Positions 14,700 through 64,000 of a stretch of 64,000 bases of DNA are shown piece after piece. A program made the position numbers and the translations under genes. Under the pieces are notes generated by a model. That model was not told the origin of the DNA, ran no database searches, and saw only the letters and a program-made list of their open reading frames with translations. This DNA is from Sminthopsis crassicaudata (taxonomy: Eukaryota): NCBI RefSeq assembly GCF_048593235.1, contig NC_133618.1, positions 143,991,162 to 144,055,161 of the forward strand, read 5' to 3'. Position 1 is the first letter of the stretch; each line of letters opens with the position of its first letter.

Positions 14700-15360
14700 G
14701 AGTTCCATCCACGCCGACCCCGGAGGTTCAGTTTTAAGGCACTAGCCTATTGCCCAGACCCCTCTTGAAGGACAACTAACAATGTGGTGGAAGACGCAGC
14801 TTCCTTTTCCTCAGTAATAATTCTAAATGAATTAATTAAATAATTAATTCTAAATGAAAGGCGAAGCCAGAATCGTGCTTTCTCAATCCAATTGCAGGGC
14901 TGGGGGAGGGGAGAAAAAGGGGGAAAGGAAAAGAAATGAGAAGGGAGGGAGGGCGGGGCGGACGGAGAGGGGCGGGGCGCACAGAGACACAGCAACAACA
15001 ACAAGGCGCAGCAGGGAGGAGCTTTAAAGAACCACGTGGCCCGCGAAGCCTCGCCTCCATTTCAGAATCAGTTCCGGTTCCGCTCTAGGAGCCACCCTTT
15101 AAAACGCGCGAGCGGCGTTTGAAGACGGGACTGGTTGTTTTCCTGCAACTTTGGGGAGGGGCTGAGGGCTTTGTTGCTGGCACCTTGAGGCAGTTGTCTC
15201 AAGAGCAGAAAATAATGAGTTTCCAAAAAAATGAAAAAACGAAGCGAAGCGAATTGTAGCTGGAACAGCCGGCTGTTAATCCCCGTTAGAAACAAGGGCA
15301 GAGTTCGCCCCCTCATCCCCACCTCCTTCGCTGAGGGGGACTCTGGAATATTACCTATGT
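14700..15360. promoter_or_regulatory. CpG-island promoter of an unidentified transcript
   Basis: CpG-dense in a CpG-depleted window; CCAAT 14888, GC boxes 14951-14961 and 14969-14978, E-box CACGTG 15033-15038, ETS-like TTCCGG 15072, CHR-like TTTGAA 15118-15123, MYB-type sites at 15191, 15273 and 15283. Confidence 0.8.
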
Positions 15361-15543
15361 TTTAAGACCTGATTTTTTTTTTCTTTTAAAAAAAATACTC
15401 TTTGTTCCATGGGATGGGGGGGGGGGGGGAATGATCCTGGGAGAAATCTAGGTGAGGGGAAAACAAGTATATTTTAGGGACCAGGGAAAAATAGAACCTG
15501 GAAATGAGTGCATTAGATTTAGCTATATCCCTGTTCTAGAATT

Positions 15544-15680
15544 CAGTGGTCCTCAAACTTTTTAAATAGGGGCCCAGTTCTCTGTCCCTCAGACTGTATG
15601 GGAGGGCCGGACAAAAACTCACGCTGTCTCCGCCCCCCATTTGCCATCACCCCGCGGGCGGCGCAGTTTGAGAACCCCTG
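15544..15680. mobile_element. OC1 (OposCharlie1)-derived hAT MITE, short internally deleted form
   Basis: Termini cagtggtcctcaaact ... agtttgagaacccctg, shared with the copies at 47552, 55248 and 58892; no clear TSD. Confidence 0.85.
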
Positions 15681-16119
15681 TATCTAAATGGCAAGCTCCT
15701 TTTCTCCAGTCTCAGAGTTCAGTTTTATTTGTAGAAGAGTAGATGGTGTATTTTACATTTACAAACTGGAGGGAATACCTCCAAAAGTGTCCTTGTCAAG
15801 TGGCCTTTCATACCTGCTGGCAACAAAAGGCGGGGGGGAGGTACCAATTCTTCAATTAAATCTACCTTAATTTTAACTAGAATTCCCTCGTAATGGGAAA
15901 GAAAACCACAGGTTTGCCAAGCAGGCCTTAAACATAGGAACAAGGTACATCATCCTAGAACCCAAGCTCCATCTATAATTTTTCTCTAATGTTGGAATTG
16001 AGGCCCTCAGAGTATCCCCTGAAGTCAAAATCCACCGTTTTTTCAGCCTACCAGTTAATGGAGTTAAACTTATTGATGCTTTATTCTAAGGAGGTTTTTA
16101 TAAGTAATCAGATATGAGT

Positions 16120-19100
16120 TGTGCACATGTAATCATGTAAGCCATTTTCATGTTAGTCATTTTATACAGGAAGACAAAAAGAATAATTTTTAAAAAAAGG
16201 AAATGGGAAAATAGCATGCTTTAGATTATTTAATGTAAGTTTTTTGTCTGGAGGTTTTCATCATTAGTTTTTAAGGATTTTCTTGCATCTTTGTGTTCCT
16301 GAGAGTAGCTAAGTCATTCACAGTTCTTCATTATACACTATTACTATTACTGTGTGCAACTTTCTTCTGGTTCACCTCACTTTGCATCAGTTCATTAAGC
16401 CTCTCCAGGTTTTTCTGAAATCAGCTGCTTATCTTTTCTTATAACAATAATGTTCCAGTGTTATCATAACACAGCTTGTTTAGTCCTTCCTCAGTTGATA
16501 GATATCCTTACAATTTCCTATTTGTCAACCCAAAATATACAAAAAATATAATTATTTTCATATAATTCTCTTCCCAGGATCTAGCAGTAGTACTGTGGAT
16601 CAGAGTATTCCTTTTCTTTTAACAAACAACATTCTTGGGGAAACATCTGATCTGAAATCTCTGACATTTAGAAAAGAGCACTACTTCTTACATCACTCTT
16701 CTTCCTTTGCACTAGTTTCTCATTTAGCAGAGCTTTAACCTAGACTTGTTGAATAATTGTCCTAGAGATTTTATGACTAAAGTTTTTTTTTTAATTAGAA
16801 GAAACTGAAAAGGTCATTCATTTCCATCCACCCTGAATAGGAATTTCCTTTTCCATATGGTCTTAGAATCCTAACTTAGCATTTTTATTGTTTTCTCACG
16901 GGGTGGTATTCTTTGCTGGATGATTTTCTGCAGATTTCTTATTGAATAAGTAGGAACTTCAGATACTTGCTTCATGCTTGAGATAACTGCTCAAGGATTC
17001 AGGCTGTACTGATTTAGTATTTGGTTTCCAAATTGTCCTCCTACCCATTTTAGTCAATTCTTGATCAGATCCCTGATTTCATAAATAGCATCAGATCTGA
17101 GTACAGATAAAACACAGCTCAGTTTTCTGTGTTCAGAATTCCAGCCACTATTGGCATAAAGCAAAAAAGTAAAAAGCCAGAAGGCCAGGAGAAGCAATAC
17201 CCATATTTAGGCTATCAAAATCTTCATCGCACTTTCTGGAGCAGAATGAGAAGTTTTAAGGAATATTGTTATTTGCCTTAGTTACCTTTTTAAAATTCCC
17301 TATATTTCTGAGGTAGTCTCTACAATTCATTGCCTACTAAAAGATCAAAATTTATTTCTTCATTTATTTGGAATTAGATACCTCGTGCCACTTGATGTGC
17401 AATCCTGACAAAGTTATGATTGAGTTATCGAGAGGAAAGGGGAAGAGTAATAGTCTACAGGTTTAGAGAAATAAGTTGAAATCTAGGTATTCAAGAAGCT
17501 GTGATAGATAACAAAGGAGACTGGCAGAAGGGACCAAGAAAGTTTCAGAAATTTGGAGGTGATTGTTACAGAAATTGGCCCACATTCCTCAATATCTCGA
17601 CAGATTGATCAATTATTAAGTACTTACTGTGTACCAGACATTTTACTAAGTGATAGAGAGAAAACCAAGCATAAATGAGTAGTTTATATTCCAATAGGGA
17701 GAAAGCAATACTTATAAAGGGGAGCTGGAAGTGAAGGGAAGAAGAAGCATGGTATAGAAATGGTGGCCAGAAGTGACTTGGAAGCCTGGTTCTCACCAAG
17801 ATATGGCAGAAAGATCATCTAGTAGGAACCTGGGCAGAGTCTCAGGTTCTGGTAAGGGGAAAGAACAGTAATAGCTAGAATACAGGTTGTATAGTTTGGG
17901 AAAAGAACCAGAGAGACCAGTAATGCAGAAAACAATAGAACTTTGTTAGTGTATTTAATTAAAATATAGGAATTTTAAGGTCTAAAATAAAACCTTTAAG
18001 ACTCAGTCACCAAAGGAGTTGGTCATAAAATCAGAAAAGGAAAATGATTCCATGATGATCTCAGAGGTGACCTTTGAATATGGCTCATCCAATTCTCTGG
18101 ATCCTCCTTGTCCTGTCCGAATGTGTGGAAATCTTTGTTCTTGTCATTTACATAACAGAGCAGCTCATCTCTCCATGATGGTCATTTCTATAGATACAGG
18201 GAAGGAAGTCTTGGCTGTGAGTTCAGATTATATAAATAGGAAAATAAAAGAAATATAGCATGCAATTTTCACTTCTGGCTTAAATGGGGCATACTTTTCT
18301 AATAGATTGACCCAAATTGCTGGTGGAAATAGTTTCAAAGAGAGTACAGTTTTTAAAAAATTATCTGTTTTTGCTTTTGCTTTGTTTGTGATTATGATTG
18401 CTACCTCTGCTTTTTTTTTTAAGCTTCATGCGAAGTGCATAACAAGTTCTGCTCTAGCCTCTTAACATTGAGTATCCCTCTAATTAGTGGTTTGTTTGTT
18501 TTTTCTTGTAAACCACAGTATAAGAATCTGGTTTTTAATCCATTTGATTGTCATTTACTTCCATTTTATGAGTGAAGTTATCCCATCAGTTATACTTAGT
18601 GTATTTCACTTCAACCTATTTTCCTCCTGTTTATCTTTCTCTTTCCTTTCATCTTTCCAGTGACCAGTTTTTGACATTGCCTGTGCCCTCCCTTTTGTCA
18701 GTCCCCCATTAGCCCCTTTCACCTCTAGTTTTTAATAGAGTAATATAGATTTCTTTACCCAACTTGATTGTTATTCCCTCTTGAGCCAATTTCTATGAAA
18801 GTAAAGTTCAAATTTTGGTCACTGCCCACTTATTCTCCTCCCATCTTCAATTCAACTATGATAGGTCTTTCTTGCCTATTCATGTGAGGCATTTTCTCTC
18901 TCTCTTCTTTCTCCAGTCTCTTACTCAAAATTATTGCCTCCTCAAAATCACCTTAAAGCTGCACTCTTTGCTCTTTGTCTATATTCTTAGTCTTCATGTA
19001 TATACTTCTATCTGCACTGATAATGTTACTTTTTTTTTTTTTCCCCTGAGGCAATTGGGATTAAGTGACTTGCCCAGGGTCACACAGTCAGGAACTATTA

Positions 19101-20260
19101 AGTATCTGAAACCAGATTGGAACTCAGGTTCTCCTGACTTCAGGGTTAGTGCTCTATCTACTATGCCACTGAGCTGCCCCAGTGTTACAATTCCTAAAAT
19201 TACAAATATCAGCATCTTCTGGGGATGCACACAGTTTGCATTCATTATGTTTTCTCTTTCCTTTTTATGTTTTTATGCTTTTCTTGAGCCCTGTATTTAT
19301 TTTTAAATTAAAATTTTTTGTTCACTCCCTATCTTTTCATCAGGGAAACTTGAAAGCCCTCTATTTTATTGAATTATCATACTTGCCATAATTCCCCTGA
19401 TGGCATTGTGCCCATTTTAGTCAGGTAGGTATTTCTTAGTTGTAATTCTAGTTCTTTTGCCTTCTAGAATATCATTTTAAACCTCCCAGATTTTTAATGT
19501 AGAAGCTGCTAAACTTGTAAAAAGTTGATACTGGCTTAATGATATTTGAATTGTTTCTGACTGCTTGCAGTATTTTCTCCTTGATCTGGGAGTTCTGGTA
19601 TTTATGTTTCTGTGAGTTTTCATTTTGGAATCTCTTTCGAGAAAGTCTATTTTACCCTCTGATTCTAGGATATCAGGGTAGTTTTTCCTCTAATAATTTC
19701 TTGAAATATATAGTTAAATAATTTTTAAATCATCTTTCCTGCATCTACTTTCCATTGAGATTTCACATTTTCTTTTATTTTTTTTTCATTCTTTTGATTT
19801 GTTGATTCTTGATGTCTCATGTCCATTTGTAATTTTTAAGAAATTATTTCCTTCAGTTGGCCTTTTTACTTCCTTTCATATTTGGCAAATTTCTACTTTT
19901 TGAAGTTGTTTCCTTCAGTAAATTTTTGTATATCTTTTTCATTTTTTATATTTTCACTTTTCAAGCTCTTGACTTTTTTCATAATTTTCTTGCATTGCTT
20001 ATTTCCTTTCCAAATATTTTCTCTACTTCTCTTATTTGATTTTTTAAGTTTTTTTTTCCAGAATTTATTTTTGTCTAATATTGGGAGAAAGAAACAACCT
20101 TTGATAATTATGTATGGTCAAGTAAAATACTTTTGCACATTGAGTACTTGATTCTGCATATTTAGTTCATTTTCTCTGTCTTGAGGTAGAGATTCTTCAT
20201 CAGCCCTCTGGAATACGGTTGATCATTGTGGTAATCAGAATTCTTAAGTATTATAAATAA
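16120..20260 (-). mobile_element. Old L1 fragments (3' end at about 16120-16600; ORF1/ORF2-start region at about 18330-20080), plus an L2 3' end at about 17570-17680
   Basis: Similar to minus-strand L1 sequence at 12900-13050 and 53690-54300 (ttgccttctagaatatca.., ttgattcttgatgtctc..). Confidence 0.6.
19029..19180 (-). mobile_element. WSINE1-type SINE
   Basis: poly-T then gaggcaattgggattaagtgacttgcccagggtcacacag...gctgcccc. Confidence 0.85.
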
Positions 20261-21229: not shown

Positions 21230-21780
21230 TCTTCTCTGCTTCTGTCTTAAATTTTTTCCATAACGTCCCATCATCTTCTTATGTATTCAACATATTTCAC
21301 TTTCAGTCTTTGATCATCCAGTGAATAGTTGAATTTATTTTAGTATTGGTTGATTTGATCTCTTTGCTGCCTTACAGAAGTTTTCTCTAGTACCACAATT
21401 AGAAAGCATTGTGGTGCTCATCTTTCCTTATAGTTCAACTTTCACAGCCTTACATTACTATTGGAAAAATCATAGCTTTGACCATATGGACCATTTTTGG
21501 CAAGGTGATAGATATCTCTGCTTTTTAGTTATACTGTCCAAATTGGTTATAGCTTTCCTTCTAAAGAGCAAGCATCTTTGGATTTCATGGCTGTAGCTGC
21601 CATCTATAATGATCTTTGAGCCTGAGAATATAAAATCTGACATTGCTTCCATTTCCTCTCCCTCTTTTTGCCAGGAAGTGTTTAGATCAATTACCAAGAT
21701 GTTAGTTTGGGTTTCTCTTTTTTATTTTAAACTTCAAGACAGCTTTGATACTCTACTCTTTCACTCTCATCAAGAACTGG
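21230..21780 (-). mobile_element. RTE/BovB-type LINE RT fragment
   Basis: ORF 21470-21697 SWQ.EGEEMEAMSDFIFSGSKI..DG.YSHEI.R.LL..RKA.TNLDSI matches the BovB RT motif. Confidence 0.85.
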
Positions 21781-22967
21781 TGCAATATTTTTGGTAATTG
21801 CCTTTACAACTAACTTGTCCATTATCATCTATTTTCATATAACAATTTGATAAATTGTTTTCTACAAACACTCCCTTCTTCAGCTGATAAAGTACAAATC
21901 TATGCTGGAGCACAGCTTTCTTTTGTTTGGGTGGCTTGTTTGGTTAACAAGTCTAAAGCTCTAGCTGTCTGATTTGTTATTTCTACCACTGCTTGCAGTC
22001 TTATAAGCCTGTTCAAGAAATATATTGGGATCATCTATCCCCAATTTCCATCCTGGGCCCAAGTGGCCAGTCCATAAATTAGTTATTCTTTCAGGGAGCC
22101 ATTCACTTCCCCAACCATTAGCATCACTTGTATTGGTCAAACATTGTATCTATGCTTATGTTAACTCTCAAGATTGCCATTTACTAGTATTCCTAAAAAG
22201 TTACCCCTTTTGGCTCCTGGTAAAAAGAATTTTAAGTGAATTAATTCAATATAGCATATTCCAATTCAGTTAGTGGGGTAAGTTTATAAGCTTTCAGCCT
22301 ACAGATTCAACAATGCCTCTTAAGTCTGGCTGGTTACCTGGGAACAGCTTAGGTCTATTTGTTTTAGGAAAGTACTATTCATTCTTCCACCCTAAAGGCC
22401 CTCTACTATATAAGTAGAATTACACCTCTGTAGTTCTGTTTCTTCCTCCATTCACAATTGTAATGTATTTTTTTTGTTGTTGTTGTTCCCAGAAGATCAT
22501 CCAAAACTGAATATAGAGTTTTCATTTCCTTTCATACTTAGTTTTTCTGGTGGTCAAATTATTGGTGTTTTCATTTATGCAGTGAAATATAGTCTGCCTA
22601 ACACAAATCTGCTGACAACTTCCCATTTCCTATTTAAATTTATATGTATGGCATTCCAGTTATTATTAATTTGGCTATAATCCAATGTTCTCTTAAATTT
22701 TTTCCCTTCTGGTATAAGTCCATTCACACTTGCTCTGTCTTAAACTTTCACCATCTCCAGTTTGAGTCAGATAATAACTTCCTGGGAACTGCAATAGCTA
22801 AGAACCAGATACGTAGCTCTGCTTGGTTCCATAAGCCAGTACTATTCCTTTCTTGTGACTGGTTTCTGAGTATCCAGGTTAAATTCAAAAGTACTGGGTA
22901 CCTTGGCCATTGTTCTGAATTTTCTGGGCCACAAAGACCCAATGATTGGTTATATTGAAAGTTTTAG

Positions 22968-23635
22968 TGTTGTGGGCGTAGCCCCCTTTAAGATTCCTTG
23001 TCTGATCTACCTTTGGAACAAGATCTGGTCAAAACCACCCTTTTGTATTTCTAGGGGAAAAGATCTGTATCTGAGCCAGTTTGGGCTTGTACCCAGCCCC
23101 CCCACCGGATCTGAGCTGGCTTGGATAACCCAACCCCCAACTATCTGAAAAGCCCACCAAAAATCTGGCCTTCCAGGAATTAACCTGAGCTCCGCCCATA
23201 TGGCTTCTTCAAGCAGATAAAAACAGCAAAGCTAGAATCATCTTTGGTCAGAGATTTGAAACATGCCAGCCAAGATGCTGGCATCAGAGATTCTCTGTCT
23301 CCCCTCCCCCCCCCCCCCCCAGCTGCTTTCGGCATTTATCTTCCTCTATTTAATGCCTTTTACTAACCAGACCTTAACCTTGCTTTCAAACCTGGCAATA
23401 AACATCTTTTTACCCATCTAGGTTTTCGGCCTGTAAATTCATTTACAGGGGACTCTCGCTGCCACTAGACCTGATTTAACTTTGTATCCTTGCACCAAAT
23501 CCTAGGGGGTTGCAAGGGAGCTCCATGTGACTCCCTGTACCCCAGTCCTGCCATTAGACCTCAATTAATCCTATTGAGGTATATACCTCATTATTAGGTA
23601 TTTACCTCATCATTTGGTTCATATTTACTTCATCA
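22968..23635 (+). mobile_element. Solo LTR inserted in the ERV env region
   Basis: TG...CA; AATAAA 23397-23402; 4-bp TSD ttag/ttaa (one mismatch). Confidence 0.85.
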
Positions 23636-26273
23636 TTAACAGTAAGTCCCTCAAACTGTTCAAACTGGTTGGTTAATGGAAAGAAAGGTAGAAATGGAGT
23701 AGAGGTTATGATTCTAATTTAGAAAATACTGGTCAAAGCATAGCAAATTTTCAAAGCAAGTAATTCAAAGTAAAGTCCCATTGTCATACTCTGCTTCCTG
23801 CCTACCTATTTATTGTCTGCATCTAAAATAATTGAAAACATCTGGAAGGAAACTTTATTCCTCAGAATGACCAATATTATAAGCATTAATCCAGTTACTA
23901 GGAAAACTATCATACATACAATATCACCTTTGTTCTTTAATTCAACTATGCCAAAGTATAAACTTCATAGGATCTTGGTGTTCACATACAATCCATTCTT
24001 GGGGTTTCTCCATTGGCCCCATGAATGGCCCCAACCTTTTGCCACAATCGTCACTGCAATTTTGGTTGTTATGAGCACTTGAAAAGTGCTACCAATCACA
24101 TTGAAGTTTAATGTCCTTCCAGGTTGCATTCTTCAGGGTGAAACTGGGGGACTGCAAATTCCAAGGTATTTGTGCCTAGAATCCATACCTTCTGAAGTTT
24201 TCAGGAAAGGATGTCAGAATATAATATCTCAAAAATTTATCTTTAGTTTCAAAAGTGGGGAAACCATGACTTCCTTCCAAGTAAAGTAGTCCAAACAACA
24301 TTGCATATGAAAAAAGTCCCATGTCTTTTCTAGGGACAGTCCTGAACCTTAACAAGGCAATAGGTAAACATTTGATCCAAGGTATTTTAGTTTCGTTTTG
24401 TAACTTTTTTTCAGAGTTGGGTTCATACTGTCCACCTTCCCCAATGAGAGTGGATGCCAAGGAGTATGAAATTGACATTTTACTTGTAATCCTTCCAAAG
24501 TTTTCTATAATACCTTACATGTGATGTCTTCCCTTTTTTGAATCTGTGTTCTTTATTTACCCATATCTGAGTACAATTTGTTTCCAAGTTCTATTCAATC
24601 ACCCTTGGAAGTGGCTGAGCTGAAGGGTTATGTTGTTAGATACACTATTTCCAATAAATATCTCACCTGTCCCATTTGTATCATTTTGATGAAGTCTACT
24701 TTGCACATTATGGAAAGATCTGAACCCTAGTTCCTTTCTTCTTGAGGATTGCTTTTTTAATACCTTTTTGTTGATTCTTTGGCAAGTTACACATCTTTCC
24801 ATGTTTGACTACTATGTATAGTCCTCCACATTTGAATTTCTTTAGAAAAAGACCATACAAAGCTTGTTACCCCTCAGTGAATTCCCAGTTCTCTTGTTAT
24901 AGTATTACTTTGCATCTTTTTAATCATCTGATAGAAAACAAAATCCATACTCATATTTGACAGCTCCTAGACTTTTGAATTTTCCCCCTTCCTCCTTTGA
25001 GAACACAGGAGGTACCTGTACTTTGGTTATAGATGGAAAAACATTCTGTTTGGATTTCCTTTACTTCGTGCAGCTTCCTTGATGGCTTTATCAGCTAATC
25101 TGTTCCCTATTATTTTAGGAATATTTCCCTTCTGATGCCCTCTTAACATGTGCCAATTTCTTCAAAGAATAATAAGACTATCTAACAATAGTTTAATCAA
25201 CTCCCCATGTACTGCTACTTTTCTTTTATTACTGATTAATTCCCTTTCATCCCAAATCTTCTCAAAAATATGTACCATTCCATAAGTATTTAGAATCTGT
25301 ATAGATGTTTTCTTCTATTTAATACTTTCAGAGTTTGGTTTAAAGCAAATAATTCACAATTTTGGGCAGATCAATTTTTAGATAGTCTGATTCAATCACT
25401 TTTTGGCTTTTCACAATTGGCTTTTCACCCATTATATCTTTTTCCCTCAACCACTCAGAATTCTATCAGGATTAATCCTCCTTTCATCTTCACTGATTAA
25501 GTGCCCCAGATATCTAACCACTGATTCCACAAATTGCAATTTCTTCTTAGATACATATAGCCCTTTTGTCCCTCAAAAGTTTAGTAGTTTTATAGTGGCC
25601 TGGGTAAGTTCTTATTTCTTTTCCCCTGATATTAGATGATCAACAAAGTGATATTTATGGGACTCTTGAGGTAATACAATTCATCTATGGTTGTTTTTTC
25701 CCAGTGCCTGGATGCTCCAGGGTAAAGGCAAAGAAGTCTTTGCTTCTGAAGTCTGAGGGAATCCCAGAATGCGTCCTTTAGGTCCACTACATGAAATACT
25801 TCTGTACAAAAGTATTTTACTAAGAAGAGTATAAGGATTTGGGTACTTATTTGCTGTTCTCAGATCCCACACTAATCTATATATTTCTTCTGACTGTTTA
25901 ACTGGTAGGCCAGGTGTGTTAATGGGGACATGCAAGATTTTGGTAGCCCGTTCTCTGGCAAAGTATGTGTCACAACTTGTCCCTCTTTTCCTTAAAGGAA
26001 TAGGATACTGTCTTAGTCATACCACATTCCCTGCTACCCTCATATCAGTTTTCAGGGGTGTTATGTTTAGTCCCCTTCTGTTACCTTTTTCAGCCCATAC
26101 CTGCAGATTTTTTGCCTGGTTGTAGTATTCTAGTAAAGGGCACATTTTGACTATTACTTGTCAATTGAATACTTTTAATTCCAATTCTAATTTTATTATT
26201 AAATGTTTCCCTTAGTAAGTTGCTTCCCATCTCTGGGACATGTAGAAACTACATGCTGATTTTCCGTTCCTTC

Positions 26274-26310
<37 letters not shown>

Positions 26311-26578
26311 AACAACAAAAAACAGTGTAGTGTGAATAAGGAGTACACAGAAATCCTTTCTTTTTACTTCTATAGCCTTTAATGTTTCTCATTCAAGTTT
26401 GAGGCCCCCCTCCCCGGAGTATGGTACAGAGATAAGATCTCTCATGATCTACTAGGAAAGTTAGTTCTTCCTGTTTTTCCCCAGTCTTTATTTAAATTTA
26501 TTAAGGGCTCCTGATTCTAGAGAAGAAAAACCCCAGACACATCTGTCTTATTTGTCAAAGGTTAAGGAAGGATCCTTT

Positions 26579-27119
26579 TGATGAGTATTAAATGATGAGT
26601 AGTAAATTGAGGAGTAAATTGTGATTTAAACAGAGATGGATCAGTTCTTTTTCTCTCTCTCCTTCCTTCCCCAAAGTAACCAATGGCGGGTTCGTTAGCG
26701 AATGAATTTCGCTACTCAAGGCTGTGTAGAAACAAAGTCTTTATTGATTAGAATAGAAACACCGGAGAGCCGGTGGGCAAAATGGCTGCATGGTACAAGG
26801 CCATTTGCAAAGAGAAGATTCCCGTTCTCTCTTTTATGCAGTGATGTAGGGAGGTTCCTGAGAGTGATGTAAATTAAGATAAGGACTCTCTTGTTATCTT
26901 TTGAGTAGAGACAGAAGTCTCTTCCCAAAAAGGAATTTCCTGATGCCATTTGGTCTATCTGAGCAGATTTAGAATGGGGGCTGTAAAACCCCAGCCAGCT
27001 CAGATAGCCCAAACTAGTTTGACCACATCTTGTATCAAAGGTCCAAGTCCCAAAAGAAGTTGGAGATCAAGAAGTTGGAGATCAAACAAAGAATACCAAA
27101 GGGGCTACCACCCTCAACA
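26579..27119 (-). mobile_element. Solo LTR related to 22968-23635, inserted in the gag NC region
   Basis: Minus strand starts tgttgagggtggtagcccc (compare tgttgtgggcgtagcccc) and ends ctcatca; AATAAA at 26740-26745; TSD cttt at 26575-26578 and 27120-27123. Confidence 0.85.
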
Positions 27120-47782: not shown

Positions 47783-48029
47783 CTCTTAAGCTTCTTTTGT
47801 GAGCTGGCATGGTGAGTCTAAAGCACTGTCTCCTCTTAAAATATCATATAATGATGATAATGACTTAACTTTTAGAGATGCTTTTCTTACAGGAGTAAGA
47901 TCAGCAGCCACATGCATTTGACACATAGTTCCCTGTGGCAAAACTATCCTTCAAATCCTTTATGAGGTTCAGCTAAATTAATGCTGGGCACTGAAAAGAC
48001 AAATTTCTTCATATCCTCCTTATCTACAG

Positions 48030-51612: not shown

Positions 51613-51904
51613 AAGTATCTTGTCCCAGATATCTTGGTGTCAAGGCTTGCAAGGGAAACCCTCTTCAGGAGCCCTTGCCAAAGACTTCCCACCATCCTCT
51701 GCCTCCCAGTCTCATCAACACATCTGGACTGAACATTATACCTACCTGTCCAGTCACCCAGGGTCCTTACCTGGGTCTGTACACAAACTTATGTTACTGC
51801 TGCATTTATTTTTGCTTTGCCAGGAACTCCGGAAGTTCTGATTTCCCCTTTAATTTTTCTTTTCCCCTACCCGGTCCTCTCCTCAGGTTTAGCCTCGCTT
51901 GAAT

Positions 51905-54900
51905 ATGAGATTAAATTCTTGACCTTTTGTTCTTCCAGATGAATTTTGTTATTTTTTTCTAGGTCAGTAAAATAGTTTCTTGGGAGTCTGATTGGTATAG
52001 CACTAAATAAATAGATTAGTTTAGGGAGTATTGTGATCTTTATTATATTCACTTGACCTATCCAAGAGCACTTTAAAATTTTCCAGTTATTTAAGTCTGA
52101 CTTTATTTGTGTGAAAAGTGTTTTGTAGTTTTTCTCATATAGTTCCTGACTTTCCCTTGGCAGATACATCCCCAAATATTTTATACTATCAACAGTTATT
52201 TTAAATGGAATTTCTCTTTGTATCTCTTGTTGTTGGATTTTGTTGGTGATGTATAAAAATGCTGATGATTTATGTAGATTAATTTTGTATCCTGCAACTT
52301 TGCTGAAGTTGTGAATTATTTCTAATAGCTTTTTAATAGATTCTCTGGGGTTCTCTAAGTATACCATCATATCATCTGCAAAGTGATAATCTGATTTCTT
52401 CATTGCCTACTCTAATTCCTTTAATCTTTTTTTCAACTCTTATTGCTGAAGCTAGCATTTCTAATACAATGTTGAATAGTAATGATGATAGTGGGCAACC
52501 GTGTTTCATTGCTGATTTTATTGGGAATGGTTCCAGTTTATCACCATTATATATGATGTTTACTGATGGTTTTAAATTGGTGCTACTATTTTAAGGAAAA
52601 GTCCATTTATTCCTCTACTCTCTAGATTTATCTAGTTCTGAGAGTGAAAGGTTGAGATCTCTCAATATTATAGTTTTGCTGTCTATTTCTTCTTGCAGCT
52701 CTCTTAACTTCTCCTTTAGGAATTTAGATGCTATACCACTTGGTGCATATATGTATAGTATTGATGTTGCTTCATTATCTGTGATATCCTTTAGCAAAAT
52801 ACAGTTTCTTTCCTTATCTCTTTTAATTAGATCAATTTTTGCTTTTGCTTGATCAGAGATCAGGATGGCTACCCCTGATTTTTTTACTTCACCTGAAGCA
52901 TAGTAGATTCTACTCCAGCCTTTTACTTTCACTCTGTATGTTTCCTGTAAACAACATATTGTAGGATTCTGGCTTTTAATCCAGTCCACTATCTGCCTTC
53001 GCTTTATGGGAGAGTTCACCCCATTCAAAATTACAGTTAAAACTACTAGTTCTGTATTTCCTGCCATCTTATGCTTTTCCCAGATTATTCCTTTCTCTTT
53101 CCTTTCCCCTTTACCCCCCTCCTTAGTATTAAATTTATAGGCACCACTTGCCTCACACAGCCCTCTCTCCCTCTTGGAATTCCTCTCCCTTTCTTAAACC
53201 TTTCCCCTACTATTTCTGTATTCCTTACTATTTAGCCTACCCCTTCCCTTTTCACTTTTCCTCTCCCACTTTTCAGTGAGGTGTGGGAGAAGTTTCTCTG
53301 AAAACCAAATTTATGTCTAATATTTTCTCTTTGAGTCAAATTTGATGAGAGTAAGAGTGACACAATGTTCATTCCCCTCCCTTCTTTCCCTCAGATATAA
53401 TAGGTTTCCTTTGCCTCTTTGTGAGGTATAGTTTCCCTCTTTTTACCTTAACTTTTCCCTTTTTCTGGTACAATCTCCTTTTCACTTCTAGTACCTTTTG
53501 TATATTATAACAGTAAAATCAAATTATACATGTACTCTCTATGTATACCCATAATAGAAATGCAGTTCTCAAGAGTATTTTTTATCTTTTTATGCTTCTC
53601 TTGAGTCCTATATTTGGAGGTCAAACTTTTTGGTTAGCTCTGGTTTTTTCATCAGAAATAAATGGAATTCACCTATTTCACTGAATGCTCATCTTCTTCC
53701 CTGGAAGAAAATGCTCAGTTTGGCTGGGTAAGTTATTCTTGGCTGCATTCAAGTTCCTTTGCCTTTCAGAATATCAGATTCCAGGTCCTTTGATCCTTTA
53801 ATGTGGAATACTGCTAGATCTTGAGTAATCCTTATTGTGACTCCTCGGTATTTGAATTGTTTTTTTTCTGGCTGCTTGTAATATTTTTTCCTTGGTCTAA
53901 TAGTTCTGGAATTCAGCCACAATATTCCTTGGAGTTTAAATTTTGTGATCTCTTTCAGGCGGTGTTTGATGAATTCTTTCAATAGCTATTTTATTTTCTG
54001 ATTCTCTAACATCTGGGCAGTTCTCTTTGATGATTTCCTGAAAAGTAGTGTCTAGGCTCTTTTTTTCATCATGATTTCAGAGTCAAATAATTTTTAGATT
54101 TTCTCTCCTACATCCCTTTTCCAGCTCTGTTGTTTTCCCAAGTAGGTATTTAACATTTTTTTCTATTGTTTCATTTTTTGGTTTTGCTTGATTGATTCTT
54201 GATGCTTCCTTGAGTCATTCATTTCTATTTGTGCAGTTTTGATTTTTAATGAATTATTTTCTTCATTTAATTTTTTATTTCTTTTTGTATTTGTCCAGTT
54301 GAGTTTTTAAATGAGTTTTTTGTTCTTTGGAATTTTTTTCCATTTCAAGAATTTTTTTAAGGAGTTCATTACTTTTTCCAGTTCACAAAATCTGTTTTCC
54401 TGGGAGTTCTTTACTTTTTTCCATTTCATATTTCAGGCAGTTGTTTTCTTTTTCCACTTTATCAAATCTATCTTTTAATGACTTATGTGCCTTTTCCAAA
54501 CTCTCTTGGAGAGTTTTCCTTTCCTTTCCCCATTATTCTTATAGCTCTCTTTTTGAGATCCTTTTTAATTTCTTCTAATAGAGCCTTACGTGGTGGGGAC
54601 CAGGTCATATCCCCCTTTAGGGCCTCATCTGGAGACTGTCTGCTGTTAGTCTACTCAGGGTTTGAAACCTGTTCTCTTTCACTATAGAAGCTGTCTATAG
54701 TTAGAGCTCAATTTTCCTTTTTACTCAATTTTTTTTTAAGTTGGGGTCTGCTTTGGGGGCAATGAGGGCTTTCCAAGCTTCCTCTATGGGCACCAGGAAG
54801 TGGCAGCAAAGCAACAGTAGCTGCACTGGGATTGTGCTGAGTCACTCCTGGTGCTGGGTGAGTGTGGCCTGGTCCGGTGAGACTCTGGCACTTTGGGGTT

Positions 54901-55150
54901 CACTCTCTACTTTCTGCCTTTGTGTTGGATATTTTTTAACTTCTCTGCTGATCTACTGGCTTGCTGCCAGGGCAGAGTAGCTGACACTGTGGTAGAGTCC
55001 TCTCTGCAGATTCTTGGCCTGTGGAGACCATACCCCACCCTTGGCCTGCTCAGCAGGTGATGTTGTCTGTGCTCTGCCTCTCTGCCTGAGCAGCACCTGG
55101 CCTGGCCTCTCCCTGGCCTGGCATCCTCCCATGCCCTGCCCCATGTGAAG
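51905..55150 (-). mobile_element. L1 with 5' UTR, disrupted ORF1, ORF2 EN start, a large EN-to-RT deletion and a 3' truncation
   Basis: ORF1 remnants 53600-54700 (Y.G.TIRITQDLA); EN NG.NSPIKR...CCLQET (52615-53067); RT FADDM (51867-52403). Confidence 0.95.
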
Positions 55151-55477: not shown

Positions 55478-56495
55478 ATCTATACTAAGATGAATAAATG
55501 TTTTGAAGTGTGTGGTAAATAATTTAATTGCTTAGGTGCTGGCCAGAACCGACCTTTTTTGGTGATCTTTGAAATTATCTTCTGTTGTAATGTATTGCCC
55601 TCTCAATATTCATGGGTTCTGCCAGTTCAGCACTTATTTTCAGAGGCTGAATTTCATAAATGGTTTGAAGGTAGCAGGAGAGCTCAGAAAGAAGCGTGTT
55701 TCCTCTCCCCATCTTGACTCTGCCTCCCACTACAATCCTTTAAGATAGCCCGTGATGATGAATCTTGATCCTTGGCTTTTCTTCAGAGTAGCTTGTGAAT
55801 TCTAGTTTTTACAAACTATTTGCCCTTTCTTACTGTATTCTTCTAGGACACTCTCTGGGTTTGTCACTAGATTCATGGTAGATACACTTTGGGCAAGAAA
55901 ATCTACTGAATTCTTCTCAGATCCATGTACTTGATAAATTTGAGAATCTTCTGGATTGGTTGCAATCTGGCTCAGTCTTTGAGAAAATGTATATTGATCC
56001 TTACAGTTTTTGCCTGTATTTAATAGCTAGATCAGAGCCACTAATCTTTAGTGTTAATGAGAAAACAGAATACTGAGAGTATAGAGAAAATAGATTCACC
56101 CCTCAGAAAAGAAGGCCTCAACTCCCTCATGGCTCTTTATCTTGGCTTCTTATGGAGCAAAACTGAGACTAGAAAATTATGTTGTCTAATAGCCTCTAAA
56201 AGGTAACAATCTTTATTTTTCTCAGCAATATTAGAATGGAGAAAAGTATCTTTTGTCTTTTCCAAGTAGAAAATCATATTATATAAGAGTATATTCTTTC
56301 CTTATTCTCAGATACAAGTCATTAAAGATTAATAATGTATATATAACCAAGAATCATTTAACAAGCATTATATATTCCTCTGGTCCTTCCCTAAGATAAT
56401 TTGTGAGGCTGCAATTTGTCCCTTCAACCTGCCATTTTTCTATTGAAGAATTCCCTAAGGAGGATATGTTCACTATTGGGCACCGGAGAAAGGCA

Positions 56496-57374
56496 TTAGG
56501 GGCCAGGGGCTTTTACAGTTGTATGAAACATGTATCTAAAAATATCACAGCTATTGGTACGTCTTTTGGTGTAGTTGAGGCCATCCCCAAAGACAGCATA
56601 CCAGACTGCATGCGGATAGTCTATACAGTTCTTTCCTATGTCCTTTATGGGGCATTTGCATGTGGCTGTAGATGCATTTGTCATCCATGCCAGCCCCCAT
56701 TTCCAAATAGTGACATGTAGGGTACCCCATGGTTCTGCCATGGTTGCGGGGGCTGGGACTTGTGCAAACAATGTGGCATTATGTGCAACCCCATCCCAAA
56801 ATGTCAATCTCATAGGACTAATCCATTGGAAGGCATTCAGGCATCTGGGGACCCCACACACACAAGGTTTCAATTTTGTTGTATGATTAAAAGCCTGGTG
56901 TATCAAGGAGTAATTCCCTCCAGAGTATGAGCAGGGCTCATGGGGAATGGCAAATATGGAAATGTTAAGGTTGGTGGGGTGTTGGCCCAGTGTGGCTGCC
57001 TTATGCCATCCACTTGTATAATTCTTTGGTAATAGTGGAAGGCATGCTGATGTGTGATTTGTTCCTGGGCTGCAGACACAAATCAGCAGGGAGTAAGAGA
57101 GAAGGGATATATTAACTATTTGATCCCACCACAAGCACTTCCTCTGTTGTTCTCCCACTAACTTGGTTCCATTTCCTTCCAACGTGAAATCAGGGGTTGT
57201 TTCACCCCATCCAACCATATGGACAATTGAGGGATAGGGAAGGACTGCCCATGTCCAGTGTCTTTGCAAGTCGTTGTTCCATTGTTCAGCATCTGTGAGG
57301 ATTATCCAGTTTTCCACATCTGTTGTCGGTATAATAGAGAGGGCGGCCATTGGGAGTACCAGTTGTCTCAGCAT
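56496..57374 (-). CDS. env: Open 292-aa beta-type Env SU ORF with no TM; expression unknown
   Basis: Follows the IN end; WAVLPYPSIVHMVGWG resembles the beta SU WAY.P.PP...V.W motif; 10 N-X-S/T sequons; Cys-rich. Confidence 0.7.
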   Translation of the reverse strand: MLRQLVLPMAALSIIPTTDVENWIILTDAEQWNNDLQRHWTWAVLPYPSIVHMVGWGETTPDFTLEGNGTKLVGEQQRKCLWWDQIVNISLLSYSLLICVCSPGTNHTSACLPLLPKNYTSGWHKAATLGQHPTNLNISIFAIPHEPCSYSGGNYSLIHQAFNHTTKLKPCVCGVPRCLNAFQWISPMRLTFWDGVAHNATLFAQVPAPATMAEPWGTLHVTIWKWGLAWMTNASTATCKCPIKDIGKNCIDYPHAVWYAVFGDGLNYTKRRTNSCDIFRYMFHTTVKAPGP

Positions 57375-58891
57375 CTTTGTCTTTAGGCACTGGCCTTGAG
57401 GTCTCCTTCTCCTCCTCCTTCTGGACCTTTTCTTCTTCTCTGAGTAATCAGAGTGATTGAGTTGGGATCCAGGAGTTCATCTCCCCTTCGGCCTGGTTAC
57501 CTGGAATGACAAGAGCATATCCTGGTCCCCATGCTACTACCCTCCCTGGTCCCAGCCATCAACTCTCTGGGGTTTTCCATATTACCAGTGTTTGTCTTTG
57601 TGGGATGAGTGATCCACGATCTGAACTGGGCTGGCTAAAGTAGTGAAAGAATTGCATGGCTGGTGTGATGTTATGCAAAAATTGAAGAAAATTGTGTATA
57701 TAACATGCTATGTCAAGTTCTGTTTGGATAACTCTCTGCTCTCCTTTGGCTTTCTTTCCTGGGGCCTCCAGCATGCCCCCTCTTTGTTTAAAAAGAAGAG
57801 TATTGATTATTCAGTTGGCTCTCTCTACCATAGCCTGTCCTGTGTGGTTATAGGGAACATGACATGATGGATGCCAAACTCCTCCATAAAGGAGGCAAAT
57901 GCTTTGGAAGTATAGATAGGTCCGTTGTCTGTTTTGAGTTCATTTGGGGGCCTGCAAAGGCAATACAGTGGAGCATATGGGCAATGGCATGGTGGATAGT
58001 CTCGCCAGGCTGCATAGTAGCCCATGTAAAGCCTGAGGAGGTGTCATATTGTATTGTTCAAATGTGTAACATCCATTTGCCACAGCTGGTGGGGAAAGTC
58101 ACCATTTTTGTTTACCACTGCACCAGCTTGGAGGCGTGCAGAATGGGGCACATGGGATGCAGCATTTAACTATTTCTGCTGCTTGTGACTTTTTTATCCC
58201 ATAAAGCAGTCTAAGGGTTTGGGCCAAGAGTGAAAGCACTGGTGAGCTTTTTGAGCAAATTCTAAGGGACATAAGAGAGAATCAGCTATGTTGTTACCTT
58301 CAAATATGGGACCTAGACCATCTGTGTGTGATCTAACATGAAAAATATATACAGGGTGTGAACGAGCCTATAATAGGGCTTGTTGGGCTTCAAGAAATAA
58401 AGCACAGATAGCTTTATGTTGTGGCTCTATATATGCAGAAGGCAACATTTGAGCGTATTGGCTATCAGTAATAATATTAACGGATTGAGGGAAGTTTAGG
58501 ATAGCTTGGATTATATAGAAAAGTTCATTCTTTTGTGTGGAGGTGTAAGAGGTATTTAGGACCCATTGTTGTTTTGTCTGAGGCACCAAATGGATGCCTT
58601 GCCATTCTTTGTGGCTCAGTAAACACCTGGGGGCCCTTTAAAGGTGTTTTAGATATAGGGGATAAGCATTTCCATGGCAAATGTGGGTATAAGTTAGCAA
58701 GGAGATAGGGCTTTTTACTGGCTGTAGGGGAGTCTGTAATAATACTTTGGCTCAAGGAAGACTATCTGTGCTAAAATTTTTATCTCTTCAGGTTTCAGGG
58801 GACAACATAAAAGGGGTTCCCTTCCTGTTAGCTAGATCACTCTCTGGCAACACTCTAGAATAAACGGGAGCAACATCTCCATTATCTATGT

Positions 58892-61075
58892 CAGTGGTCC
58901 TCAAACTTTTTAAATTGGGGGCCAGTTCACTGTTCCTCAGACTGTTGGAGGGTCAGACTATAGTAAAAACAAAAACTATGAACAAATTCCTATGCACGCT
59001 GCATATATCTTATTTTGAAGTGAAGAAACAAAATGGGAACAAATACAATATTTAAAATGAAGTAAAGTTAAATCAACAAACTTAACCAATATTTCAATGG
59101 GAACTATGGGCCTGCTTTTGGCTAATGAGATGGTCAATGTCTGGTTCGATATTTGTCATTGCTAGTCGTAACAAGTGATGCAAGTGTGCATCCGTTAGTC
59201 TTGATCTGGTTGAAGATTCTAGAAAAAGTCTGTTCACAGATATAAGTGCTGCCAAAGATGGTTGCCACTTTGAGTGCATGGTTTCTGAGATGAGGTTATG
59301 TCTCAAAGGGGAGAGATGCATAGAAATTATGAAGGCTGCTTGACTTGAATGCATCTTTCGGAGAATAACAATTCTGCAGTTCAGCCAGTTCCATTTGATA
59401 AATTGTATCCACATTTTCAATGTCAATAGAAAATGAGTTGTGGAAAAGCTCTATATCTTTTCATGGAGATGAAGCTCTTTAAATCTAAAATGGAACTCAT
59501 TTTGCAATTTTTCCAATGAATCCAGACATGTTTTGTTTGGGAATGCAATCAGTGGTTTTTCTGCTAACAGATTTTAAGTTGTGGGGAGATGGCAGAAGTT
59601 TTCCTCCTTCACTTGTTTGATGAGGAGACCTAATTTTACTTCAAATTCTTTGACATGTGATCGCATATCACAGACAAGCTTCCCCTTTCCTTGAAGTTGC
59701 ATATTGAAATTGTTGAGTAGCTCTGTTACATCTGTCAGAAAGGCAAGGTGCCATTTCCATTCTGCATCATTGAGCTCTGGTACTTCTTTGTTTTTTGAAA
59801 GCAGAAAAGTTGTAATCTGTGGAAGTAAGTCATAGAAATGTTTCAAAATTTTCCCTCTACTCTCAGCCAACGGACTTCTGTGTGATATAGAACATCTTCA
59901 TACTCAACATTTAGCTCAGACAGATATTCCTGAAATTGATTTATTACATTAGCTCTAATGAAGTTAACACAAGATATCACAATTTTCATAACAGAGTTCC
60001 ACTTCAGTGATTTACTACACAGCACTTGTTGGTGGATGAGGCAGTGTGTGGTTATTGGATAAGAATGGTTATGTTTGTCCATCTCTTGGTTAATGCAAGC
60101 AATTACTCCTTTCTTAGACCTCACCATTCTAGGGACACCTTCAGTTGTCATGCTGACTAGTTTAGCCCAGTCCAGTTCCAAACCATTCATAGTTTGGCAA
60201 ACCTTTTCATAGATATCTTCCCCTGTAGTTGTTCCTTTGATGCTTTGCAGTGCAGCAAGCTCTTCTATGACTTCAAAATAATCATGCATTCCCACAAATA
60301 AAAATTAGAAGTTGTGCGGAATCACAAACATAATTGCTTTCATCTAGTGCCAAGGAAAAATATGAAATTTTTTTGTGGAGTTTTGCAAATGCTGATGCAG
60401 ATTGTCTCCCATTTCTTTAATCCTCCATGTAATTGTAGGTCCTGAAAGACTCACTGTACTAAATAAATCGGCCTTCTCTGAAAGAAGGCATTCTTTAACA
60501 AATTCTCCCTCCACGAATGATCTGCCAGTGCACGCTATTAGCTTGGCAATTTGAAAACTTGGTCGCAGTGATGAAATATTTAGCTGCTTCTGCTTCACAA
60601 AAATATTTTGCTGAATTGTCAATGTATTTTTCAATTTTAATATGTTATCTTTTCTCACTTCTCCAACCAAACAATCACATTTATCTTTATGTTGAGTTTC
60701 ATAGTGTCGATGCAAATTATATTCTTTGAACACAGACACTATATTCTGGCATATCAGACATACAGCTCTTTCCTTGTACTACATGAAAAAGTAATAATAA
60801 GTCCACTGTTCTTTGAATATCCTATACTCCAAGTCAATTTTTCTTTTTCTTGACATCATTATTTCTAAGGGATTCCAAATTGCTATTAGTAAAATACCAA
60901 TACATATATACAGTGCTACAAAAACAATATACCAGCAATAACTTTTCCCACACAGAGATATACAGACTGCAATGCCCAACTTCCTCCAAGCTGCCTCTGC
61001 GCTGTGATGCCTCCGTTTCCCGCACTCTCTCTGCCGCTTCAGACCTTCACTGCACACAAGTTACCACTCAGGTGG
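58892..61075 (-). mobile_element. OC1 (OposCharlie1) hAT transposon, near-complete but frameshifted transposase, one TIR lost
   Basis: MMSRKRKID..RIFKEQWTY, C.IHQQ, YHTEVRW, SRLTDAHLHHLLRL...QAHSSH across ORFs 60779-61057, 60344-60739, 59843-60295, 59574-59870, 59094-59426; TIR at 58892. Confidence 0.93.
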
Positions 61076-61504
61076 CCCTCCCAAATGCCCTGGCTTCCTC
61101 TGAATCCTGGGATCAATTCTCATGATCCAGCGCTGCATGATCGTCCATGCTACACTCGTAATTTATCATAATCGCAAGCAAGACTTGGCATATATGTATA
61201 TAACTGGGCGATATATTGTATCTGCATAACGAGTTGTTGTGAGGGGAGCATCCTATATTCTGGAGGGTCTGAAAACTTTCTGTCCTCATCCTCACTAGAA
61301 TCCCTTGCTATTGAATCACCCATTTGTGTAATTCCTGTAACTAATTTTGACGGGTGCCCTTTATCTAATTTATATAATTGCCTAGCATAACTTTCGTTTT
61401 CATCAGGCTTGATGATGGGAAGTGAAAGCATCTGTCCCATGTCTATTCCTCTCCAGCTTCTCACCTAAAAGTGAGACTGTGGAGCTTCCTAACAAGAATA
61501 ATGG

Positions 61505-61522
61505 GTCCCTGTTTGGGCGCCA
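61505..61522 (-). promoter_or_regulatory. Primer-binding site, tRNA-Lys3
   Basis: tggcgcccaaacagggac, 17/18 match to TGGCGCCCGAACAGGGAC. Confidence 0.9.
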
Positions 61523-62793
61523 GTCATTAACTCCCTGCTGCTTACCTCAGTGGAGGTCAACTGGTTCTTACCTTCTCTAGGTCTTCGGACATCTTCGGCT
61601 CTGATTATCTCAATCAGAGAACAACTTCAAGGGTCCCCCATGCGGCAACAGGTCTTTATTGTATGACTTTGCATCATGGAGTTCCTCCCCCAACCCCATC
61701 CCCTATCTTCTGCAACCCCCTTTTTACAGTCCCCAGATCACGTGTCTGAGAGTGCATGAGCCTAGAGCATGATCAGCAAGAGTGAGGAGGCTTTTCCTCA
61801 TTACTGAGGTTTACTTAATACCTTCACCACTCTGTCAGGCTGGGACAGAATAAGCCTCTAAGTGCCTCTTATACTCTACCCTTGAGATTCTGCCCTTTAC
61901 TCTAACACCTATCCCCCACTTATATCTCCTTTCCTCTATTGCCCCTTCATGTGCCATGACAACAGTACTACTATTGGAAGGGAGTGCTTTCCCGTGTTTG
62001 GCACATACTCAGTGCATGACTGCTCTGTGTTTCTGTGACCACCTTATCATTTGTTACATTTGGTGGCTGACTGTACCAGGAACTTGTCTCACTTAATAGA
62101 AACTCGGGAATGCAATCAGCAGAATACATGCCCAGGACACCTCTTGGACCCTCTCGATATGTACTGTTTTCCAGGCAACAATCAAAGGCAAGGTTGGGAC
62201 TTTACAAAGGACAGAGAAACAATCCATCATACCCTTATATGAGCATAATTAAAATGTAACTATTATGGGGGTTTAACATGGGACTTTCCAGACTTGCTCA
62301 CATCAGCATAAAGTACTTCCTCATGTTTGGTGTGCAAGGCTGGAAGATAAAAGGAGGTATTTGGGATAGTAAAGGCAAGCACTTGTCAGAACTCACCATA
62401 ATAAAGAGCATCTTGATTTCATCTCTTCTGACTTGTGACTCTCTTTGGGGAAATATGCTGGCCATGTCCAGATGCGCACTGAAGCTCAAGAGGAGGTAAG
62501 ACCCAGCTGCCCCCAGGTGTAATAACTGACATTTGCTTTTTAAAGTTTGTTTGTTTTCTTTGATTCTTCTTTGACAAAATGAGCAAAACATTAAAGCACG
62601 CTCTAACTATTGATAGCTTCTATATGATCCCTCCAGTGGTTTTTCAGACATTACTTTGGGAGGAATCCACAATAAGCTGGTCATTAGATAAGGGCCTGCA
62701 TGAATATACGTGAAGTGTACAATAGTCATAATGGTGGTCCACAACAGATTATCTTGAGCAATAGCAAGAATATAGCCCTTGGGTATGGGGGCA

Positions 62794-63153
62794 TGTGGGG
62801 GGCGATCCCAACCACCGCCTCTACTTACCCTGCCCAAGGGTCTTCGGATATCTCCGGCTCCCCTCGGGGAACTGAGGGGAGAATCACTAGGCAGAACACC
62901 GGAGGTGGGTTAGAGCAACTTAATTACATGGCGGTCAGCGAAGTCTCCCCCTACCTCTTCTTGGTTAACCCTTATATACTACATCATTAGTCCACCCATT
63001 CCAGGAAGGCTCCTCCCTGGTTCCTCCTGGAGGGCGGAGCTCAGCTCTGTAGGGCCACCCCAGTGCTGATGTGGCAAAGCCACATCACCAGGTCCAGACC
63101 CCCAGGCATCTCCTCTCCACCCCAGGAGGCCCAGGTCCAGAGCACCCCTTACA
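62794..63153 (-). mobile_element. 3' LTR of a beta-like ERV, preceded by a PPT (aaaagaaaaaggggga, about 63156-63171)
   Basis: tgtaagg...cccaca; TATATAA at about 62975; PPT immediately after the env stop. Confidence 0.88.
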
Positions 63154-63208
63154 ATTCCCCCTTTTTCTTTTATCAAGAGGGTTGGTGGACAATTTCAGCC
63201 TTTACAGC

Positions 63209-63907
63209 TTACAAGGTTCTATGAAGGGCAGCTAGAAAGCAAGAAAGTAGGCAGGGTAAACATAAACACACAAGAAATCCCAATCCCAGTGCTACCGCTC
63301 CAGTAGTAATCCATTGTAACAATTGTTGTAGATTTAAATTCTCCCACCAATTTTTAGCATTGTTCAAATGTTTTTCCCAATCTTCATTTAACTGTATAGT
63401 AGCGTTTTCCATTGCAGCAATTATAGAATCTAAAGCATTTAACTCTTCAGTAAAATTAGTAGCAAGAGTGGCATTTTTAAGAATTATTTCAAGCTGTCTA
63501 TATAAAGTATCATTGTAAGGGATGGCTGTTACACATACAGGGTAGTATTTATAATGACATTGCATTCTCATATATCTCAACAAGAAAGCTTGTTTTTGGG
63601 TAATTATCTCTACCACTGCTGCCAGGGATTGTATCTCTTGTTGAAGTACCTTATCAATATGTTCTTGATGTTTCCATGCTAATCCTGTTTGGACCATAAA
63701 TTTCTGTAAGGAACTTGCAAGAAAGGCTACTTGGCTCTGTAATCTTTGTATCTGTACTTCTTCTAAAATATTCATAGCCAAGTTTACCACAGACAAGATG
63801 TCACCCAATGTTAGGGGCTGGGACCGTTCACAGGAAACCTCAACAGTGACTGCCTCTTCTAGCTTCCCCGACCCGACGGGGCTTCGGAGGTCTCCAGCCC
63901 TCCTCAT
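63209..63907 (-). CDS. env: 232-aa ORF: 33 aa from LTR U5 fused in frame to 199 aa of intact beta-type Env TM
   Basis: Heptad repeats, CX7C motif (CHYKYYPVC), membrane anchor ITTGAVALGLGFLVCLCLPCLL, native stop before the PPT. Confidence 0.7.
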   Translation of the reverse strand: MRRAGDLRSPVGSGKLEEAVTVEVSCERSQPLTLGDILSVVNLAMNILEEVQIQRLQSQVAFLASSLQKFMVQTGLAWKHQEHIDKVLQQEIQSLAAVVEIITQKQAFLLRYMRMQCHYKYYPVCVTAIPYNDTLYRQLEIILKNATLATNFTEELNALDSIIAAMENATIQLNEDWEKHLNNAKNWWENLNLQQLLQWITTGAVALGLGFLVCLCLPCLLSCFLAALHRTL

Positions 63908-64000
63908 GGAGATGGGAGGAGGGAATCACCAGACAGAGAGCCAAGGTGGATAGAACACAGTGATGTTTATTGAAGTTACAAGTCAGCAGTGTCTCTCTGA
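63809..64000 (-). mobile_element. R/U5 end of an LTR abutting env TM, cut by the window edge
   Basis: AATAAA at 63967-63972; ends cccctaaca. Confidence 0.8.

Follow-up and report, generated by a model that had tools for sequence, protein, structure and literature searches.

The CHMP7-TDH gap and its CpG island

We analysed a 64-kb window of the Sminthopsis crassicaudata (dunnart) genome (C2:143991162-144055161; genome 3.24 Gb in 8 contigs) together with 600 kb on either side; coordinates are window-relative, and negative ones lie to the left of the window. The proteins of the neighbouring genes have their best matches in dasyurid marsupials. Near 15 kb lies a promoter-like CpG island, placed within a 347-kb gap (C2:143.83-144.18 Mb) between CHMP7 on the plus strand and TDH on the minus strand and followed by a stack of mostly minus-strand insertions (Table 1). 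A RHOBTB-like gene lies farther left, and MTMR6-9-family and XK-related genes farther right.

No host exon was recognised between CHMP7 and TDH, either by Pfam on plus-strand frames to 104 kb or by a codon-based exon scan of low sensitivity (for TDH, it picked up 2 exons out of at least 6). To that extent we agree with the sequence-only reading of this DNA, which saw no host exon in the 49 kb right of the promoter. The locus thus has the intergenic position of a mammalian piRNA cluster, on an exon search whose Pfam part reaches 104 kb, and the same-strand coding exons that should lie downstream of a first intron were not found by a search of limited sensitivity. Short plus-strand frames of protein-like composition occur at -95264 to -94169. 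A KRAB zinc-finger host locus was considered and rejected, there being no C2H2 array in 464 kb of sequence, as were R3HCC1 and FAM167A as hosts, since the R3H- and FAM167-family matches lie at C2:29.4 and 177.3 Mb.

Within one batch, RefSeq protein accessions run in the order of the chromosome. The spacing between the CHMP7 and TDH accessions is 1 in Antechinus, 3 in both Gracilinanus and Sminthopsis, 9 in tammar and 71 in koala, and it is large in the remaining four of the nine marsupials that have both genes; by this rule, the accession order suggests that CHMP7-TDH adjacency is common to American and Australian marsupials. The human gene order around CHMP7 and TDH we take to form two separate blocks, so that the gap marks an old rearrangement junction, the R3H and FAM167 neighbours lying 115 and 33 Mb off in the dunnart.

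The CpG promoter proposed by the sequence-only reading holds up as a weak island, single-copy in the genome, with 20-23 CpG per 500 bp and an observed/expected ratio of 0.68-0.75 against 0.15 window-wide. It carries three GC boxes (14951-14975), an E-box (15033), an ETS site (15072) and CHR-like hexamers (15098 and 15118), and transcription would start near 15.05-15.1 kb. Scored with what we take to be the MYB consensus, the promoter has two sites where 0.46 are expected (p = 0.07), a number that several control islands equal. In koala, the A-MYB motif is reported to be enriched in promoters of intergenic piRNA clusters (10.1101/599852). Candidate splice donors are predicted downstream of the island at 15451 and 15942. 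The first 2 kb hold no AATAAA on the plus strand and three on the minus; over 15-90 kb the counts are 53 and 79. This plus-strand shortage speaks for the proposed precursor, and the control intron of the XK-related gene shows it as well (236 and 318). Rfam gave no match within the 64-kb window.

Table 1. Features of the window and the genes that flank the gap (window-relative positions)
Feature	Position	Strand	Basis or remark
CHMP7	exons -170.1 to -160.9 kb; last matched exon -160.9 kb	+	left flank
Weak isolated CpG-island promoter	14751..15500	+	CpG counts, motifs; direction inferred
Two strict MYB-consensus sites, candidate A-MYB	15189..15290 (at 15191, 15283)	+	motif scan
Putative single-strand precursor	15100..64000, antisense-element domain onward to ~77-89 kb	+	predicted from element stack and substitution skew
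hAT MITE	15534..15680	-	orientation same as autonomous hAT at 58892
Further hAT MITE copies	47550-47786 and 55246-55482	-	same family as 15534 copy
Old L1 3' fragment	16102..16523	-	automated annotation
CORE-SINE (19018-19178) and old L1 ORF1 piece (19250-19709)	19018..19709	-	annotation
RTE/BovB-like fragment	21380..21760	-	by eye
Old degraded provirus, 5' LTR ~28693-29050	21800..29050	-	by eye: reverse poly(A) signal, PBS-like site
Solo LTR, sense exception	22968..23572	+	TG start, AATAAA 23397; has relatives
Solo LTR	26608..27121	-	by eye and sequence relatives
Broken gamma-like provirus	30384..39197	-	Pfam Gag_MA, Gag_p30, rve, MLVIN_C, TLV_coat
Retrocopy, T36 tail, nested in gamma-like provirus	30902..31950	-	SINE pieces on both strands
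Gamma-like provirus remnant; nested SINE 42499-42622; LTR ~45016-45400	39427..45400	-	MLVIN_C at 41206
Beta-like provirus remnant	45790..49824	-	Integrase_Zn, RVP, RVT_thumb
Solo LTR, sense exception	46345..46683	+	AATAAA 46620
L1, 5' part to RT	51870..55090	-	RVT_1, Exo_endo_phos
Beta-like provirus remnant, hAT-interrupted	55800..61900	-	RNase_H, rve, Integrase_Zn; PBS-like site 61510
hAT (OC1-like) transposon, transposase on minus	58892..61000	-	zf-C2H2_12 at 60347-60778
3' end of broken beta-like provirus extending to 70733	62794..64000	-	GP41
TDH	exons 199.8 to 186.7 kb; last exon 186.7 kb	-	right flank

Orientation, density and age of the insertions

The sequence-only reading had counted about 20 minus-strand insertions and about 3 plus-strand ones right of the promoter. 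Our recount by eye (15.1-64 kb) gives about 21 against 2-3: 18 retroelement or hAT insertions and 3 hAT MITEs on the minus strand, and on the plus strand one SINE piece within the retrocopy and two solo LTRs, at 22968 and ~46345, both already singled out as plus (the latter at 46364) and confirmed here as sense insertions. The hAT element at 48030 could not be assigned an orientation; with the second sense LTR and a MITE, it is nested inside the 45790-49824 provirus (hAT element, 48030-48846). The names BovB, OC1, WSINE1 and MIR are presumed from resemblance rather than taken from library matches.

Pfam on stop-free frames of at least 75 aa, covering 147 of 157 frames with the remaining 10 all below 4.2 kb, placed 15/15 matches right of 15.1 kb on the minus strand and 2/2 matches left of it on the plus strand. 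Shorter frames (150 of 231) added five transposon matches, all minus, as well as four weak non-transposon matches under the cut-off, so that all 20 transposon matches right of the promoter in the window are minus. The provirus at 21800-29050 gave no Pfam match. An automated L1/SINE/ERV/hAT annotation that drew on L1s from the region, natural ERV ORFs and a SINE profile agreed (11/11 elements minus in 15.1-64 kb). No run among the 460 elements annotated over 1.26 Mb is longer than its unbroken stretch of 13 minus elements (11475-76316); shuffling gives a probability of 0.07 for a maximum run of 13 or more, in a count that the merging of proviruses makes too low.

The bias right of the promoter is confirmed, as first claimed, and its borders are wider than the claim. 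It begins upstream, with a SINE at 11475 and an L1 at 12469-14282, and reaches ~77-79 kb, past the window end, fading by 89 kb. Between 64 and 104 kb, frames with transposon domains number 18 on the minus strand and 6 on the plus, the latter all from two proviruses, at 79.5 kb (the first plus provirus) and 94 kb.

How unusual this is depends on the baseline. With 21/23 minus, p = 3e-5 against 50:50, 0.04 against 74% and 0.13 against 80%; with 18/21, p = 0.17 against 74%. These counts exclude three long minus ORFs (43227, 51375, 59846) that had self-matches only, and nested elements in the stack are not fully independent. The 74% is that of a control intron in the nearby plus-strand XK-related gene, where 17/23 L1 copies are antisense. 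In human introns, sense ERVs are reported as 2- to 3-fold fewer than antisense ones and ERVs as mostly depleted (PMC1794541). The binomial comparison with intronic background that had been suggested for this locus is thus marginal, and strand bias alone is not decisive, being compatible with ordinary intronic antisense rates (74-80%).

Retroviral density is a clearer anomaly than strand bias. Eight retroviral pol/gag loci lie in 85 kb against nine in the other 1179 kb, a density some 12-fold higher (p = 4e-7), as found with ERV queries from a provirus outside the antisense domain but inside the CHMP7-TDH gap. The transposon depletion typical of mammalian intergenic piRNA clusters, a tendency to which exceptions are on record, is not seen here, where ERVs are enriched about 12-fold. 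Other ERV remnants in the gap, mostly plus, lie at -90, -30, 94-106 and 165 kb.

All proviruses of the stack are broken. The gamma-like provirus at 30384-39197 retains an LTR pair (30384-30789 and 38747-39197) of 81% identity and received the polyadenylated retrocopy between its env and 3' LTR; the LTR pair of the beta-like provirus at 62794-70733 is 94% identical, and two further minus provirus remnants follow it, to 76.3 kb. LTRs diverge at ~2e-9 per site per year, a rate at which these identities would correspond to roughly 45 and 15 million years. Other genomic matches number at least 39 for the gamma LTR, only 71-83% identical, and at least 3, all short, for the beta LTR. Since the current targets of both look old, the stack may record past rather than present defence.

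Several element groups lie in the flanks. A young minus-strand L1 at -76538 to -72696 has an uninterrupted 1281-codon ORF2 frame. Just downstream of TDH, at 142-181 kb, large L1s and a beta-like provirus are nearly all plus; that provirus (165410-170373) is nested in an L1 and has long open gag and pol frames. The plus lean there could reflect minus-strand read-through or a second cluster (skew, as defined below, 0.79; z = -1.9). At 295-378 kb, between the MTMR9-like and XK-related promoters, several near-full-length L1s are all minus, with a skew of 1.01.

Substitution asymmetry and projection onto opossum

We polarised substitutions in L1 and SINE copies and expressed skew as the excess of A>G over T>C relative to the intergenic baseline. 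On the plus strand the excess at 15-90 kb is 1.68 (z = 2.3), a value drawn from 83 substitutions, of which two L1s supply most, in one of 15 regions examined. The control intron of the plus-strand XK-related gene gave 1.41 (z = 3.1), and the minus-strand TDH gene 0.37 (z = -2.0), each in the direction expected of its strand. Left of the promoter the skew is flat (1.03), with no signal of leftward transcription. The pattern weakly fits long-term germline transcription that would run rightward only. A bidirectional cluster was considered and set aside: 9/13 elements are plus in -40 to 11 kb, but the skew there is flat (1.03).

Direct opossum coordinates for CHMP7, TDH, MTMR9, XKR6 or RHOBTB2 were not found in the supplements and literature searched. 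We placed the locus by coordinate interpolation rather than alignment, extrapolating 4 Mb past the nearest anchor. In monDom5, STARD7 is listed at chr1:590.23-590.26 Mb and APMAP at 595.41-595.45 Mb (PMC4654475 supplement file 3). The dunnart anchors are STARD7 at C2:148.02-148.03 Mb and, at 152.61 Mb, the sole Str_synth match, taken as APMAP. The resulting slope of 1.13 projects the promoter onto chr1:585.70 Mb, and slopes of 1.09-1.21 give 585.86-585.38 Mb. A supplementary list of opossum intergenic testis clusters has IG_34-37 at 585.13-585.72 Mb (PMC7782496 supplement file 6), with strands and lengths of plus, 40 kb (IG_34), plus, 36 kb (IG_35), minus, 95 kb (IG_36) and plus, 94 kb (IG_37) (PMC7782496). 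The promoter is projected inside pi_monDom5_IG_37, and three of the four members of the group are on the matching strand; positions no farther than 300 kb from a cluster of at least 30 kb make up only 0.7% of the opossum chromosome. Interpolation thus predicts that the syntenic opossum locus, within IG_34-37, makes piRNAs.

Two mappings of the islands are possible. If the 15 kb island is the start of IG_36/37, the slope is 1.15; if it is the start of IG_35, the slope is 1.21, and the islands at -208 and 208 kb would correspond to IG_34 and IG_36/37. Both mappings would place a plus-strand cluster start at the 15 kb promoter. From the CpG island at -208 kb to CHMP7 (-208 to -172 kb; IG_34 under the second mapping) there is a mild minus lean only. 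Where IG_39 of opossum would map, our positive control, we found two CpG islands, a mild minus lean and no ERV stack; of the two islands, the nearer one is followed by an open reading frame.

C2:144-153 Mb is co-oriented with opossum chr1 and the flanking anchors are opposite, which may reflect a local inversion or a flip in the opossum assembly. As the PIGT and galectin-like anchors show C2 and opossum chr1 to be opposite overall, the block would be flipped locally, and its edge might not be far. TDH and STARD7 accessions are 43 apart in opossum and 39 in Antechinus, which suggests that the TDH-STARD7 segment is intact.

A putative retrovirus trap and its alternatives

We consider the best explanation, with a probability of about 0.68, to be an intergenic piRNA cluster of the testis, single-stranded in output and flamenco-like in content, lying between CHMP7 and TDH. 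The CpG island at ~15 kb would drive a long plus-strand Pol II precursor in meiotic germ cells, possibly under A-MYB, and the precursor would be processed into piRNAs of 24-32 nt that are antisense to the families caught. Sense insertions would be purged because the poly(A) and splice signals they bring would truncate the precursor, and antisense ones would be tolerated or favoured, supplying guides against their families. Over tens of millions of years the locus may so have gathered successive gamma- and beta-like invaders, and it is probably a testis piRNA source of long standing that works as a retrovirus trap. The piRNA-cluster reading first proposed for this DNA is partly borne out, on three independent lines: the intergenic setting with no plus-strand host gene recognised, the predicted opossum synteny and a weak skew. 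The strand bias by itself is at the level of introns, and the MYB excess does not reach significance (p = 0.07).

The same bias might be produced by a long non-coding, perhaps spliced, unit of little or no piRNA output, with selection against sense insertions and ERVs piling up in a weakly constrained, gene-free gap. This seems to us unlikely. Bias compatible with the intronic rates, the candidate splice donors and the mostly plus ERV remnants elsewhere in the gap would all suit it, but it leaves unexplained both the 12-fold ERV density just downstream of the promoter and the fact that the locus projects to where opossum has one of its rare groupings of large piRNA clusters. Considerably less probable is that there is no functional transcript, and that an ancient rearrangement junction has become a hotspot of insertion, its nested elements sharing an orientation by chance. 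The departure from 50:50, the retained unmethylated-type CpG promoter, the plus-strand mutation skew and the predicted synteny with expressed opossum clusters all speak against chance, even granting the maximum-run result and the incomplete independence of nested elements; the genes next to CHMP7 and TDH in human, on the order we assume, do sit elsewhere in the dunnart genome, as a junction would have it. The giant first intron that the sequence-only reading offered as its mundane alternative is largely excluded for a plus-strand protein-coding gene and is the least probable of all. A transcript from 15 kb would meet TDH, the next gene, head-on; CHMP7 and TDH accessions are consecutive in Antechinus; and genes of the FAM167 and R3H families, which human order would place here, are far away. 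What can be said for the intron is that the exon scan is insensitive, that plus-frame Pfam extends only to 104 kb, and that, in the closest species, two accessions separate CHMP7 from TDH.

Returning to the proposed piRNA cluster, its nearest likeness is pi-phaCin-IG-174 of koala, described as likewise marsupial, intergenic and unidirectional on the plus strand, with an antisense ERV and co-oriented transposon fragments (10.1101/599852). In koala, however, the piRNAs have been sequenced and the ERV.1 target is active (10.1101/599852), whereas in the dunnart piRNAs are predicted and the proviruses broken. The opossum clusters IG_34-37, at the predicted orthologous position, are single-strand units of 36-95 kb (PMC7782496), and the dunnart antisense domain measures 62-75 kb; IG_36/37 is listed as divergent (PMC7782496), whereas the dunnart locus has no leftward transcription signal. 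In flies, flamenco-like clusters are defined by LTR enrichment and strand bias (PMC10643416), and at the dunnart locus LTR elements are enriched and lie almost all antisense to one strand. Flamenco and flam-like loci share with it this LTR-element enrichment and a strong one-strand bias downstream of a single promoter; the fly loci, as described, act in ovarian somatic follicle cells against Gypsy elements and are pericentromeric (PMC10643416). The dunnart locus, in contrast, is predicted to act in the testis germline, lies among housekeeping genes and includes co-oriented L1, SINE and hAT elements. With intronic ERVs (PMC1794541) it shares the sense deficit, and it differs in its roughly 12-fold enrichment and lack of a coding host.

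The flamenco comparison fits the content of the locus, but flamenco-like clusters have been published before for a marsupial, the koala. The koala clusters are reported to be transposon-depleted on average, the trap model finding no general support there beyond a few flamenco-like exceptions (10.1101/599852). It is unsettled whether piRNA clusters of mammals serve as adaptive traps for transposons in the way flamenco does in flies. The novelty here is probably the locus itself and its probable age across marsupials, the kind having been described in koala. If no piRNAs are made, this is an ordinary ERV-rich gene desert. Conserved flanks, likely opossum piRNA output and dated antisense proviruses make the idea testable across assembled marsupial genomes.

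A bolder proposal, possible and in our view rather doubtful, is that the CHMP7-TDH gap is a pan-marsupial flamenco that predates the split of American and Australian marsupials, has captured each retroviral wave in antisense and is under selection for trans-silencing. If that were true, the nested, datable proviruses would preserve the history of germline immunity as fossils do, and would provide a long-sought mammalian test case for the trap model.
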